Shown: one piece after another, positions 48,001 through 54,000 of the stretch
Layout: each line of letters begins with the position of its first letter
Numbering within the stretch: position 1 is the stretch's first letter
IMG/VR virus record: IMGVR_UViG_2529293141_000015
Span: 1 to 64,000 of that record
DNA from: a virus
Lineage: Duplodnaviria > Heunggongvirae > Uroviricota > Caudoviricetes
DNA length: 64,000 bases
Direction: 5' to 3' (one strand)
Position numbers: made by a program

Positions 48001-51000
48001 CGCCGGGTTTGCCGGTAATGAAGTGATGTTTTCGGAAGCGTATCTGCCGTATGCATGGCCGGAAGTGAATCGTCACACGACGGCAGAAGATATTGTGGCT
48101 ATCTGTCCGCTGGGAACGTCACTGGTGGTGGCGACAAAGGGGGAGCCTTATCTGTTCAGTGGTGTATCGCCTTCCACAATTTCTGGCTCCAGAATTCCTT
48201 CCATGCAGGCATGCCTGAGCCGAAGAAGTATGGTGGCGATGGAGGGATTCGTACTCTATGCTGGGACAAACGGTCTGGTATCTGTTGATGTAAACGGTAA
48301 TACAGCACTGGCAACGGAAAAGATTATTTCACCTGAACAGTGGCAGAGTCAGTTTAACCCGGCGTCCATTGTGGCTTATTCCTGGCGTGGTGAGTACATT
48401 GCCTGTTACACGAAACCGGATGGTAAGCAGGATGTGTTTGTATTCAGTCCGGTGAACATGGATATCCGTTATCTCAGTACACCGTTTGACTGCGCATGGG
48501 TTGATCTCGCGAAAGATATGATGCGCGTGGTGACAGGAGACAAAATGTCAGTGCTTGCCGGGGGCTCTCTGCCATCCACGATAAGGTGGCATTCAAAAAT
48601 TTTTTCATTACCTGAAAGAACCTCTTTTTCCTGTATCAGGGTGAAATCTCCGGCACCTGAGTGGGTGGGGATCACCGTTATGGCTGATGATGTTCCTGTG
48701 ATTCATTTTGCGCCGGGTACGTTTAAGGGAAATGTGGTGAGACTTCCGGCAGCAACCGGGCAAAACTGGCAGGTGATGGTATCCGGATTCGGGCAGGTGG
48801 AACGAATAACCCTGAGTACATCGATGTCGGAGCTACCGATATGAGCAAAAAACCGTGGCGTGCGGGGAAGGATTTATCCACTGTTGTGGAGAACATGGAA
48901 ATTGGCACCGGGCAGCGTGGTGACGGACGACACGCGTTTGTGACCCGTGAAGAACTGGTAGGTCTTAAGCTGGCCCGCCGTCGGGCGTCACTGACGGGGA
49001 TGTATTCTCTGAATCCCGGTGTTGATGCTGTCAGTAGTGAACAGAATGTCGTGGAACACCCTGCAAAACCACAGAATGTTAAGGCGACGGGAGGATTTGG
49101 CTCAGTCCTTCTGGAGTGGGATGTGGGAAATTATCGCGGGCATTCGCTGACAGAAATCTGGCGGGGTACGGAAGATGACCTTGCGGATGCGGTACTGGTT
49201 GCCACGACGCCGGGGCAGGTTTACGGCGATCCGGTTGATCCGGGGTGGTCGGGGTTTTACTGGATACGTTTTGTGAATGCCGCTGGCGTTAAAGGGCCGT
49301 GGCATGCTGTTTCCGGAGTGGCAGCACAGACACAAATTTCTGTTCAGGCGCTGATTGACCAGATTAAGGAAGAAGCGGCGAACTCTCCTGTTGTGGAGGA
49401 GTTACGGCAGGAAATTAAGGATGCCGAGGGGCGGGCAGTCGAAGAGGCGGGGATACAGACAACGGAGGCAGTGGGGAATTTAAAAGAGGAAACGCTGAAA
49501 ACGATTGGCGGGGTGGAGAGCCGCATAACCGGCATGGACTCATCCACAAGTGAATCGCTTAATGAGATTAATGAGCGAATCACTGAACTGGATGAAGGAG
49601 GCAGTAAAGCCTTCCTGTCCATGTGGTCAAAAAAAGCCGGAGCGGATGGAGTGACGGCTGGTATCGGGATTGTCGCCGGAAAAGACAGTGAAGGCAGGCC
49701 TGTAAGTCAGGTTGCAATTTCTGCGTCGCAGTTGTTTGTCTTTGACCCGAACAACCCGGATAACACCGCCTATCCGTTTGCGGTATCAGGTGGCAAGGTT
49801 GTGATCCCGAAAGCGATGATTTATGACGCGGTGATTGAAACACTGGTGTCGCGGAAGGTTGTGGCGGATGAGGTAAAAGCCGGGGTAAGTATCACTTCGC
49901 CAGTTATCCGGAGTGCCGTTATTCAGAACGGAAACTTTCAGGTTGAGTCCGATGGCAGCATAAAAAGTGGGGAACATTTCAGCGTTTCAGTGAATGGAGA
50001 TGTGACGGCCAGTAATGCGAAGATCAGTGGTCATATTGATGCGGATTCCGGCACGCTGAATAACGTGATGATTGAAGAAGACTGCATCATTAAGGGAACA
50101 ATGAGTGCGGACAGAATCATCGGAGATATCGTCAAGGGATATTCCTTCGAACCTCATGATGGCACGCTCCATATTACGAACCACAAGTATGGAGAGGGTT
50201 ATGTCATCTTTAAGGCGGAGGTATCTCTTGCTGATGATGTTTCGTTTGATCGCAAGTTGATACTCCTTCCCTTCACTTTCTATTCAGGAACACTGACGAT
50301 AGAGATTAACGGAAGAGTTGTCATTAAGGCAGACCCAAGAGTTGCTAATACGGGAACGGCTGGTTATTTTGACAGATACGACAATCCTGTTTACACGCGC
50401 ACCAACCTCGGGAACACCGTTTCAGGAGTATGGGATGTGGCGGCAGGAGGGGGAGATACACGGATTACAGTGACAATGAGAGTTGAAGGTGGTCCTGGCA
50501 ATATGGGGGATGTGGAAGGGAGAAAGAGAGAACTGGTGCGATGGAGATATGACGCCTTTACTCTCATGGTGGCGAAATCGACAGATTCCGGTTTTACCCG
50601 GATATCGTGACAGGCAGTTGTAATACGGATTGCCGGAAGGAGACAAAAACCGTACAGTATGCGCGGGTGCCTTTCGGCTGATGGCTGGAGGGAGAACCTG
50701 AAGGCTGAAGTGGTCAACAAAAACTGGCCACCGAGTTAGAGTTTTTTCCAGTATCGATTTTCCGATTCGTTTGGTGGTAACCCACCATTATATTCGTGCG
50801 GTCTTAGTGCGCTGTAATATCCAACGATATAGTCCGTTATTGCGTGAGCTGCATCGCTGAAGCTTACATAGCCCGTCGCCGGCACCCATTCGTTCTTCAG
50901 ACTCCTGAAGAAGCGCTCCATTGGGCTGTTATCCCAGCAGTTTCCACGCCGACTCATACTCTGCCTGATCCGGTATCTCCACAGTAACTGCCGGAACTGC

Positions 51001-54000
51001 CTGCTCGTATAATGACTGCCTTGATCGCTGTGGAACATCACCCCGACGGGCTTACCACGGGTTTCCCATGCCATTTCCAGTGCTTTCATGGTAAGCCTGC
51101 TGTCCGGCGAGAACGACATGGCCCAGCCCACTGGTTTTCTTGCGAACAGGTCGAGAACAACGGCGAGGTACGCCCAGCGCTTACCTGTCCAGATATAGGT
51201 CACATCACCGCACCACACCTGATTTGGCTCGGTCACGGCGAACTGCCGTTCAAGGTAGTTAGGGATAGCAACATGTTCATGACCACCACGTTTATACCGG
51301 TAAGTCGGCTGCTGACAGCTGACCAGCCCCAGCTCTTTCATGAGTCTGCCAGCAAGCCAGCGCCCCATCTGGTAGCCTCTCTGGGTTGCCATTGTGGCGA
51401 TGCTTCTTGCTCCGGCAGAGCCGTGGCTGATGCCATGCAGTTCAAGTACCTGGCTGCGTAATACAGCCCGTCTGCCGTCTGGCTTTTCAGGACGGTTTTT
51501 CCAGTATTTGTAGCTGCTGCGATGGACCCCGAACACATGGCAGAGAGTGGCCACAGGATAACGCGCCCTGAGTTTCCCGATTATCGAGAACTGTTCAGGG
51601 AGTCTGACATCAAGAGCGCGGTAGCCTTTTTTAATATTTCATTTTCCATTTCAATACGTTGTAGCTTTTTCCTGAGCTCACGGATTTCAATTTGTTCCGG
51701 GGTAATGGGGGAGGCTTTTGGTGTTTTTCCCTGCCGCTCATCACGTAATTGTTTCACCCATCGCGTCATTGTGGAAAGGCCGACATCCATAGCGCTGGCT
51801 GCATCTGCCACGGTGTAATTCTGGTCAACGACCAGTTGAGCGGATTCGCGTTTAAACTCTGCGCTGAAATTTCTTTTTTTCATTATGGCACCTGTGTTGT
51901 TCTGAGGTGAGCATATCACCTCTGTTCAGGTGGCCAAATTCAGTAAACCACTTCAGGCCTGATATGGAAAGGCCCCGAGTCAACTTTAACGTTAACCCGA
52001 GGCCCTGACCGTACAACCTTCACAAGTAGTAGGTTAGCGCCTCTCCATTCAGGAGACAAGCGTTATGTCGCAAAAATCGCTCATCACCGTCACAATTTGC
52101 ATGACGGTTATCTTCACCATCTGGATGTTGCACGGTTCACTGTGTGAGTTCCGGCTGAATTTGTGGGGAGCGGAGTTTGCGGCGTTCTTACAGTGTAAGC
52201 AGTAGGAAAACCGCGACGGGGACGAAAGTCCCCGTCAACTGGTTGCTGAGGTTCAGCCGATATGGCACCCGTTTGTAGTGTATGTTTTATACAATGCAGG
52301 CTGACAGAGAGAGGTAATATTTATCAATGGTAAATAATAACCACAGAAAATGTTTTGTTTTTTCTGAGTAATACTGGTGTTATTTAGGGTAAGTTTTTGA
52401 TGCGTATTGCATTCTTGTGATTTTAATCATTAATTTTTCTTAACCCATTGATTTTAATATTTTATTTGCCTTGTTATTATGAGTAGTATCCCTGAAGACA
52501 TTTGCGTTCCGAATGTCAACATATTTATAACATGATTTAACATAGGGTGCACATCATGAAAAAGGCAAGCAAGCTGTTGTTGGCTTTAATGCCGGCATTA
52601 AGCCTGTCATTATTTTCTGCCGGGGCGTATGCCAGTGGTTATTCCGTTACACCTGAAAGTCTGAATAGTAATTCAATGACTCAGGGTGACTTTTTGAAAG
52701 GTATCGGTGTATATACACAAAATGGAGAACCATTAATTAAGCTTGAGAATGGTCAGGTTACTCCTCTTAAAGGGAATACACCAACCTCATTAAATATAGA
52801 CGCTGTTTCCGGTAAATATTTGAAATATACCTTAATTGATTATGGTAAAGCTGGCCTGACAGATACCGAGTTAGTTGCTCCAAGGGGAGACATCGTCTCA
52901 TATTATGATTACGCGAATGAGACAGCTTATTTTGTAAACACAAAAACCAATCAAATTCTGTTTAGTGCAGATGGCGAAGGAGTTGTCTCGACAGTAGGCG
53001 CTGATGGAAAAACATATTCAAGACATATTCCTGAAATTAGTGAATATATTTATGAAATTAAAATGAAGGCTGTGCAATATGGAGCCACTATTGACACTGG
53101 TCTTTCTGCTGCAGATGTAACAGATATTCACGCCCGTCTGTCTTCTCTGGGCACCGGTAAAACTCAGGTTGGTGGCGGGGCAACAGCAGGCGGAGAAAAC
53201 GCCACTGCTGTCGGTTACAACGCCACTGCAAACCATACGAACAGTGTTGCTGTAGGGGCTAACTCTCAGACCACTCGCCCCGATGAAGTTAATGTGGGGA
53301 ATCGTGTAATTGGTGGGCTTCGTGATGGTGTTCAGGCTGCGGATGCCGCAACCTATGGTCAGTTAGAGCGCTATCGTATTGCAGAAGAGAATGCCCGTAT
53401 TCAGGGTGATGCACAGACACTGAAGTCTGCTAATACCTACACAGATAACCGGGTCAGTACCCTGGAGCGTAGTACTAATCAGCAATTCCGTCAGTTACGT
53501 GATGAGGTGGAGAAAAACCGTAAACGTGCAGATGCAGGTATTGCAGGAGCAATGGCGATGACTGCCATTCCTGTTGTTGAGGGTAAAACGTACTCCTTTG
53601 GTATGGCTGCAAGTAACTACCGTGATGAGCAGGCTATCGCAGCAGGTATGCACTTCCGCACCACTGAAAATTCTGCTGTACGTTTGAATGCTTCATGGGA
53701 TACCCAGAACGGTTCAGGTGTTGCTGCGGGTATGTCTGTCGGCTGGTAATTTATTTTTTGCGGAGAACGCCAGCCGTGTTGGTTATCGGAAGCGTTCTCC
53801 GTCATCCTTCTGTCGCTGAAGACACAGCACAGTCACATTGTTCTTTTTTGTGGTGAGAGTGTGAGTGAAAAAATTCTCCGGTATATGCAGCGTGTGGTGA
53901 GAAATTCCCGCAACCCTGAATTTATGAATGAAGTTAAAGACGCCTGCTTTAAAAAGCAGGCGTTTTGTTTTGAGGCACCTGATGGCTTTCTGGTGCTGCG

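Follow-up and report, generated by a model that had tools for sequence, protein, structure and literature searches.

The window analysed here, a 64,000-nucleotide stretch of DNA from a tailed virus (Caudoviricetes; positions 1 to 64,000 of IMG/VR record IMGVR_UViG_2529293141_000015), carries two identical copies of an insertion sequence (IS) in opposite orientations. We propose, with considerable confidence, that these copies are two separate insertions of the element ISEc52 into a prophage that lacks stx and is integrated at wrbA. Copy 1 cuts an Ead/Ea22-like gene, copy 2 cuts the leader of a hok gene, and the inversion substrate that the pair forms is a by-product of the two events.

The copies make up the sole long inverted repeat of the window. 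Its arms (8783-10033 and 50706-51956) are 1251 nt long, 100% complementary, and 40,672 nt apart, and a perfect inverted repeat of 1.25 kb is far beyond chance. The arms exceed the element by one base, because the two target duplications match there by chance (C at 8783, G at 51956). The element itself is 1250 bp long, has the ends TGAAGTGG...CCACTTCA, and is 100% identical in the two copies. The repeat search and a reading of the flanks place the copies and their target duplications as follows.

8781-8783, no strand: left target duplication of copy 1, CTC (the empty site has one CTC)
8784-10033, plus strand: IS copy 1 (ISEc52, an IS911 variant), 1250 bp
10034-10036, no strand: right target duplication of copy 1, CTC (the empty site has one CTC)
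50703-50705, no strand: left target duplication of copy 2, GGC (the triplet is single in empty sites)
50706-51955, minus strand: IS copy 2, same sequence, inverted relative to copy 1, 1250 bp; its right inverted repeat (IRR) abuts the tail-tip side and its left inverted repeat (IRL) the hok side
51956-51958, no strand: right target duplication of copy 2, GGC (the triplet is single in empty sites)

The duplications of both copies are 3 bp long, with no extension to 4 bp. Empty-site probes of 120 nt, made in silico by deleting each IS together with one triplet, match exactly and without interruption (120/120 nt) in five relatives for site 1 (L003, L015, L021, L023, and L024) and in ten relatives for site 2 (L005 to L014). 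Because exact empty sites occur in independent genomes, the boundaries and the 3-bp duplications are real. A first-pass annotation of the window had placed the second copy at 50706-51955 and had described two identical, inverted copies that each retain their own target duplication (CTC and GGC). The coordinates are exact, and the complementary arms, the flanks, and the single triplets of the empty sites bear out the rest. Sequence differences between the copies and unmatched flanking triplets were looked for; the copies are identical and the triplets match. With up to 4 mismatches per 25 nt allowed, the window shows no further sequence resembling an IS end.

The coding capacity of the element is that of an IS3-family transposon, with the following features in the two copies.

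8856-9158 (the open reading frame [ORF] also runs from 8820), plus strand: orfA of copy 1, 100 amino acids
9107-9113, plus strand: A6G -1 frameshift site AAAAAAG of copy 1 (element nt 324-330)
9185-10003, plus strand: orfB ORF of copy 1; the orfB frame ends at 10003
51883-51581, minus strand: orfA of copy 2; the orfB frame ends at 50736

From orfA and orfB in phases 0 and -1 and the slippery site, a conceptual -1 fusion is predicted to give an OrfAB protein of 382 amino acids. The identical 382-amino-acid product in L025 (assembly GCA_001188105.2) matches PF01527 HTH_Tnp_1, PF00665 rve, and PF13683 rve_3. The terminal repeats are imperfect, with TG...CA ends (IRL, TGAAGTGGTTTACTG...; IRR as its reverse complement, TGAAGTGGTCAACAA...), and share 8 terminal nt and a GGCCACC block. 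Exact copies in complete Escherichia coli genomes carry the Prokaryotic Genome Annotation Pipeline (PGAP) label 'IS3-like element ISEc52 family transposase', and copies that cover at least 80% of the element length are found in 1800 of 5426 such genomes. Plasmid copies that are at least 97% identical receive the ISEc52 label, and Shigella dysenteriae copies of about 94% identity the IS911 label. K-12 fragments annotated as IS911A are about 97-99% identical to the element of the window.

With IS911 (IS3 family, IS3 group, S. dysenteriae prototype) the element shares its length of 1250 bp, the orfA/orfB organization, the A6G site, the 382-amino-acid OrfAB, and the 3-bp duplication. The sequence comparison, which used the PGAP-labelled copy of S. 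dysenteriae NCTC 9718 and not the original prototype record, gave an identical IRR and 99 of 100 identical residues in OrfA. The DNA is only 94.2% identical to that copy (1177/1250), OrfAB is about 96% identical (~14 substitutions), and three differences fall in IRL nt 9-11 (TTT versus CAC). By contrast, the element is 100% identical to copies labelled ISEc52. On sequence grounds, the closest named element is therefore ISEc52, a close IS911 variant, and the name IS911 given in the first-pass annotation is correct at the family level but probably does not designate the exact element.

IS3-family elements transpose by a copy-out/paste-in route, in which a circular copy integrates elsewhere. ISEc52 would accordingly have arrived in the prophage twice, independently, by this route, a mechanism suggested by what is known of the family.

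Copy 1 interrupts an Ead/Ea22-like gene of the early-left operon, on the minus strand, after codon 59, and leaves two pieces.

8412-8783, minus strand: C-terminal remainder of the Ead/Ea22-like gene; an 89-amino-acid C-terminal ORF is recorded in other sources
10031-10210, minus strand: N-terminal fragment of the Ead/Ea22-like gene, 59 amino acids, GTG start at 10210

The stop codon of the N-terminal fragment, TGA, comes directly from the IS end. The reconstructed product has 181 amino acids and is identical to the intact product encoded at 8765-9310 of L015. This truncation is absent from the first-pass annotation. The copy 1 junction also occurs in GCA_002133445.1 (100%), GCA_002459965.1 (100%), SRR13202286 (99.8%), and a SRR5030805 contig found in 8 samples. 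In all four sources, contigs break inside the IS precisely at the copy 1 site, and the 59-amino-acid fragment and the 89-amino-acid ORF are recorded. No exact 40-nt match to the junction was found in IMG/VR. Because the same insertion is present in at least four other sources, copy 1 is inherited and shared within a lineage: ISEc52 would have entered the Ead/Ea22-like gene, truncated it at codon 59, and then been passed on to several strains.

The same N-terminal fragment of the Ea22-like gene was also seen in GCA_016591315.1 (L027), where the contig ends exactly at the equivalent of window position 10034. There the surrounding prophage is a different one, in which Metallophos and HAD_PNKP genes precede the fragment. 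Recombination may have carried the IS-disrupted allele from one prophage to another; alternatively, the contig break may have arisen in some other way. A further ISEc52 copy lies in strain ATCC 25922 (L001 4922-6171; 99.8% identical, duplication CAT/CAT), in the early-left operon of another lambdoid prophage. An apparent 38 nt of shared flank made this copy a candidate for the same junction. We rejected it, since ATCC 25922 has an intact Ea22-like gene (an empty site, ~85% identity) and an unrelated ISEc52 insertion with its own CAT duplication.

Copy 2 was described in the first-pass annotation as lying between the tail fibre gene and the hok-like gene. This position is right but incomplete: the Rfam model RF01794 and alignments of eight hok alleles and of hokC place the insertion inside a conserved hok/sok cassette, behind the 41st nt of the predicted hok transcript, a point 3-6 nt past the predicted 3′ end of sok. 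The parts of the cassette and its upstream neighbour are listed below.

48841-50610, plus strand: tail-tip fibre gene, 589 amino acids, intact, ending 95 bp before copy 2; the exact protein occurs in many assemblies
50630-50705, plus strand: detached 5′ part of the hok cassette, with promoter, +1, and the first 41 nt of the predicted mRNA
50630-50635 (-35, TTGCCG) and 50653-50658 (-10, TACAGT), plus strand: predicted hok promoter, with the predicted +1 at 50665
Nt 1-7 of the predicted hok mRNA, plus strand: tac, the 5′ element GGGUGCC, within the detached part 50630-50705
51959-52274, plus strand: rest of the hok cassette, with the leader (Sok target), the hok ORF, and fbi
51962-52021, minus strand: predicted Sok antisense RNA, mapped by alignment to the annotated K-12 sokC
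52059-52054 (-35) and 52036-52031 (-10), minus strand: putative sok promoter TTGTCT-17-TAACCT, a weak match
52065-52205, plus strand: hok ORF, 46 amino acids; the identical protein in relatives matches PF01848 HOK_GEF
52264-52270, plus strand: fbi, the 3′ element GGCACCC (nt 347-353 of the reconstructed transcript)

The promoters were assigned by a relaxed scan together with conservation and alignment to K-12 hokC. Across eight distinct alleles, which follow either the tail-tip gene or lom, the cassette is conserved from the -35 box to fbi. The homology begins exactly at the -35-like TTGCC and ends just past GGCACCCGTTT; tac and fbi are invariant, and the conserved block stops just after fbi. 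The insertion point, CCTGAAGGC^CTGAT, falls in a stretch that is also invariant across the eight alleles. In ten relatives, hok starts 202 bp past the tail-tip gene. Alignment with the K-12 hokC/mokC/sokC locus sets TATAAT over the phage TACAGT and GGGTG over GGGTG, and homology in the leader is clear. RF01794 matches the IS-free locus over the full model length (37.1 bits, E = 3.7e−6; the gathering score of 59 bits is not reached), and alignment positions 1-41 in the IS-free relative correspond to the detached 5′ part. On the window, the score drops to 18.2 bits, since stem 1 is split and half of it is taken up by the IS. When the 366-nt transcript is reconstructed and folded in silico, the minimum free energy structure pairs GGGUGCC (nt 1-7) with GGCACCC (nt 347-353), and in this model the pairing is the tac/fbi closure typical of hok mRNAs. 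The predicted Sok RNA folds into a 16-bp hairpin followed by UUUCC.

We suggest that copy 2 entered the 5′ leader of the hok mRNA 41 nt past its predicted start and just beyond the predicted sok terminator. Promoter and tac would thereby have been left on one side of the 1.25-kb IS, and the Sok target, the hok ORF, and fbi on the other. The likely consequence, judged from this arrangement, is that hok is silenced and sok is still made. According to PMC2654758, which cites Pedersen and Gerdes 1999, hok/sok loci of K-12 are inactivated by IS elements, point mutations, or rearrangements, and IS150, an IS3-family element, repeatedly inserts next to hok/sok in experimental evolution (PMC5419217). 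In the annotated K-12 locus, IS186A lies just 3′ of hokC. The likeness of copy 2 to the IS-inactivated K-12 loci and to the IS150 cases is that an IS lies near, and not within, the hok reading frame and uncouples, or for copy 2 is predicted to uncouple, toxin expression (PMC2654758; PMC5419217). It differs from them in being borne by a prophage, in being ISEc52, and in its position, +41 on the predicted hok transcript, which parts tac from the Sok target.

The site 2 target (window 50697-50713) has CCTGAAGGC immediately before the IRR end TGAAGTGG, so that TGAAG occurs twice in tandem; a 5-nt match of this kind could be due to chance. IS911 reportedly favours targets similar to its own ends. 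The exact 46-amino-acid Hok protein is listed in 22,558 index blocks and is thus a widespread prophage allele. A look-up of hok with short flanks returned only lom-hok contexts among these blocks.

Several observations weigh against our interpretation. The hok/sok assignments are computational, and the RF01794 score remains below the 59-bit threshold. A simple sigma-70 consensus scan detected neither a hok nor a sok promoter (none in 50500-52500), and the promoters that we assign are both weak matches to the consensus (8/12 for hok and 7/12 for sok). There is no mok ORF, in that no frame opened by an ATG, GTG, or TTG in the leader extends beyond the hok start; hok is served by an AGGAG ribosome-binding site of its own, and in these two respects the prophage allele differs from the arrangement in plasmid R1 and K-12 hokC. 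Transcription of hok could still occur in lytic growth by Q-dependent read-through of the late operon across the IS. Copy 2 was found in this sequence only: its junction has no exact 40-nt match in IMG/VR, species-representative genomes, or metagenomes, and in the 5426 complete E. coli genomes no IS occupies either site. Finally, the matched duplications at the two copies are also compatible with an even number of inversions or with minority isomers in culture.

The possibility of read-through bears on a different reading of copy 2, in which hok remains expressed from within or across the IS and is possibly deregulated for want of the 5′ tac. We consider this unlikely. The insertion leaves the hok ORF, its AGGAG site, and the 3′ region undamaged, and Q-antiterminated late transcripts, which run in the same direction, could pass through the element. 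But the IS end that faces hok is IRL, and in IS911 the promoter element of IRL points inward and an outward -35 element lies in IRR. The empty result of the consensus scan in 50500-52500 and the intact predicted sok gene also speak against continued expression, and a deregulated hok would be toxic and unlikely to persist. Silencing of hok with retention of sok is thus the reading that we keep. That copy 2 was selected as a precise disarming of hok that preserves Sok, and reflects a preference of IS3-family elements for the structured region of hok leader and sok terminator, seems quite unlikely to us. The suggestion of such a preference comes from the recurrent IS150 insertions near hok/sok in evolution experiments. 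If copy 2 were such a selected disarming, the resulting sok-only locus could neutralise hok of related incoming phages or plasmids.

The restriction of copy 2 to a single sequence also raises the question of an assembly artefact, such as an IS consensus misplaced during repeat resolution. Besides the absence of copy 2 from every other searched sequence, it would fit that GCA_001188105.2, the likely source of the window, is a multi-contig second-version assembly. Copy 2, however, is bordered by a clean 3-bp duplication, whereas the ten relatives with an empty site have the triplet only once; its flanks are otherwise identical to theirs over 120 nt, and assemblers do not make target duplications. 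The contig is also continuous through both copies, and we regard an artefact as highly improbable. In the search of complete genomes, each IS was used with 1.5-kb flanks, and one flank plus the IS was expected to give 65% coverage. Because no record reached this value, the complete E. coli genomes contain neither occupied sites nor inversion isomers. Two relatives (L006 and L013) encode identical proteins around site 2 and lack copy 2. No protein near site 2 is lineage-specific, and no ORF that spans a copy 2 junction is likely to be called as a gene.

Copy 2 was found nowhere else and may be the younger of the two. Transposition is biased to nearby sites (PMC5009759), and copy 2 could be derived from copy 1. 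Their identity alone is no proof of such an origin because identical copies of the element are common in other strains. A different IS3-family element truncates the tail-tip fibre gene ~490 bp upstream of hok in strain JNEC-KY202 (L002 2202-3379). We considered it as an equivalent of copy 2 and rejected it, as it is another element and is inserted in the tail-tip gene. The insertions in ATCC 25922 and JNEC-KY202 hint that such prophage regions tolerate or attract IS3-family elements.

Taken as a pair, the copies bracket a segment that matches uninterrupted prophage DNA.

10034-50705, no strand: interior between the copies, 40,672 bp, from the Ea22/YfdQ/Exo/RecT/Gam genes through the tail genes, in ancestral orientation

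In the alignment of the window with the IS-free relative L003 (strain 2012EL-2448), all blocks are antiparallel and monotonic from 4417 to 55495, across both sites, and this collinearity indicates that the interior is in its ancestral orientation. The first-pass annotation had stated that the pair brackets ~40.7 kb with the recombination, immunity, replication, lysis, and morphogenesis modules, and that no inversion had been fixed, and had named comparison with related genomes as a check. The repeat search and the gene map agree with the first statement. The second holds on the matched duplications and, independently, on the collinearity of the interior with L003; a fixed IS-mediated inversion has left no trace in the window, either as exchanged or hybrid duplications or as an interior inverted relative to L003. 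The two copies run antisense to the phage transcription around them.

When inverted IS copies recombine, the intervening segment is flipped, no new junctions between IS and flank arise, and short reads do not reveal the event (PMC5009759); lost or exchanged duplications are an accepted footprint of recombination between IS copies (PMC11708052). The window offers the same substrate and the same duplication diagnostic as the inversions between inverted IS copies described in E. coli (PMC5009759; PMC11708052). Unlike in those cases, the substrate here is a potential one, and no inversion has been fixed. As a by-product of the two insertions, a perfect 1250-bp inverted repeat with arms 40.7 kb apart could allow RecA of the host, or the RecT/Exo proteins of the prophage, to invert the interior.

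An extension of this idea is that the pair acts as an invertible switch, with coexisting isomers that rewire the prophage. In the inverted form, to judge from gene orientations, the late operon would be followed by xis and int, and the early-left operon by hok and the distal late genes. The 1250 bp of perfect inverted homology, the RecT, YqaJ-type exonuclease, and GamL proteins encoded by the prophage, and the precedent of inverted-IS recombination that escapes short reads (PMC5009759) would all be in keeping with a switch. The outside segments, moreover, are co-oriented with the adjacent interior operons, and the inverted form would probably still be transcriptionally coherent. Yet this assembly contains only the parental arrangement, with matched duplications and a collinear interior, and neither site is occupied in any arrangement in the complete E. 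coli genomes. Nor is there any sign that the pair has been selected, and the occurrence of copy 1 elsewhere comes with no evidence for copy 2. We hold a switch to be very unlikely.

The first-pass annotation had further proposed that the pair could mobilise or destabilise the prophage interior. This part is not supported: the outer duplications are not alike (CTC on one side, GGC on the other), the interior consists of the prophage's own DNA, and 'destabilise' is an overstatement because recombination between inverted repeats flips the interior without removing it. A pair of identical, inverted IS copies is admittedly the classical layout of a composite transposon, as in Tn5 and Tn10, and the outermost ends of the pair are two inverted IRL ends. 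But the triplets at those outer ends are CTC to the left of copy 1 and GGC to the right of copy 2, and each copy is matched with itself. The matched duplication at each copy and the differing outer triplets point to separate insertions and not to a composite unit. The interior and both exteriors, furthermore, are collinear with one continuous IS-free prophage, and copy 1 exists alone lineage-wide. Neither a single outer duplication nor a foreign interior was found. The circle through which IS3-family elements transpose joins the IRL and the IRR of a single element, and a 43-kb unit bounded by two IRL ends would be an unlikely substrate. A composite transposon able to mobilise the 40.7 kb is therefore extremely improbable, and two separate ISEc52 insertions remain the explanation that we favour.

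The pair thus represents ordinary insertions of a very common element into a common type of prophage, an event of a kind already known, and its overall importance is limited. What is added to the first-pass annotation is that the element is assigned to ISEc52, that an Ea22-like gene is truncated, that copy 1 is inherited, and that copy 2 lies within a hok/sok cassette. Because the copy 1 junction is common to several independent assemblies, it provides a ready lineage marker. The pair is also a defined 1.25-kb inverted-repeat substrate in a prophage with its own RecT/Exo system, and short-read assemblies of related strains are for this reason untrustworthy on the orientation of the 40.7-kb segment; their contigs are blind to inversion isomers, since recombination leaves every flank joined to the IS end that it had before. 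With copy 2, the pattern of hok/sok loci neutralised by an IS beside the toxin ORF gains a case carried by a prophage. Automated annotation would call this copy intergenic and overlook the separation of hok from its promoter.

By its sequence, the prophage that received the two insertions is placed with the short-tailed members of the Stx-phage group, although it lacks stx, and it resides in an E. coli chromosome. That it is integrated at wrbA is deduced from the neighbouring genes in relatives, in which exact-protein look-ups place the integrase, on the left, next to the FMN_red (wrbA) gene. Contig JWSO02000007.1 of GCA_001188105.2 (L025) is 100% identical to window 31-20210, and this assembly is for that reason very probably where the window comes from. 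The gene map was taken from L003 and from exact-protein look-ups. In L003, the integrase side is followed by Ea22/DUF551/ASCH genes, YfdQ, Exo, RecT, GamL, a PstI-like restriction-modification pair, and cI/cro. Next come replication genes, NinG, Q, a SASA (NanS-p-like) esterase gene, lysis genes, terminase, and portal, and then an N4-gp56-type capsid gene, tail genes, the tail-tip fibre gene, hok, and YadA-like genes.

The structural module of the window is 98-99.9% identical to that of short-tailed Stx-converting phages, namely Stx2-converting phage 86, P13374, Shigella phage 75/02 Stx, and phiSTEC1589-Stx1c, the last of which is the closest deposited phage and has no IS. These phages share the layout int ... 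cI/cro ... Q, NanS-p-like esterase, lysis genes, N4-type capsid, tail-tip, hok, and a polyvalent protein of ~2790 amino acids. In the closest deposited phages, stx lies between Q and the NanS-p-like esterase gene, often together with tRNA genes, whereas the window has neither: it contains no stx ORFs and, between these two genes or anywhere else, no tRNA genes. The two IS copies, in turn, are lacking in those Stx phage records and in close prophage relatives. In the window, Q (25441-25974) and the esterase gene (26629-28647) are only about 650 bp apart.

Other features of the prophage were noted in passing. Directly beside the cI-like repressor gene (19940-20653), the minus strand encodes a restriction endonuclease of the PstI/BsuBI type (17426-18379) and a methylase of the Eco57I type (18376-19845); the assignment of this pair is based on Pfam matches of same-size proteins in relatives. 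ParD-like and HigA-like antitoxin genes, recognized by Pfam and PGAP in relatives, lie on the plus strand at ~5600-6600 among minus-strand early-left genes, with no obvious partner toxin annotated beside them. A direct repeat (4579-4878 and 16001-16300, 11.4 kb apart; 78% identical over 300 nt and 86% over 233 nt) flanks copy 1 and is too diverged to be a good deletion substrate. It lies in two minus-strand antirepressor-like genes, one of the ORF6N type (4601-5278) and one of the Rha type (16023-16808), which probably share a paralogous C-terminal domain. The gene for the polyvalent protein of ~2790 amino acids, which in relatives has LPD5, LPD1, MuF_C, and LPD38 domains, starts at ~57066, ~70 bp past a 421-amino-acid gene (55731-56996), and runs off the end of the window; few ORFs are consequently listed after 57 kb.

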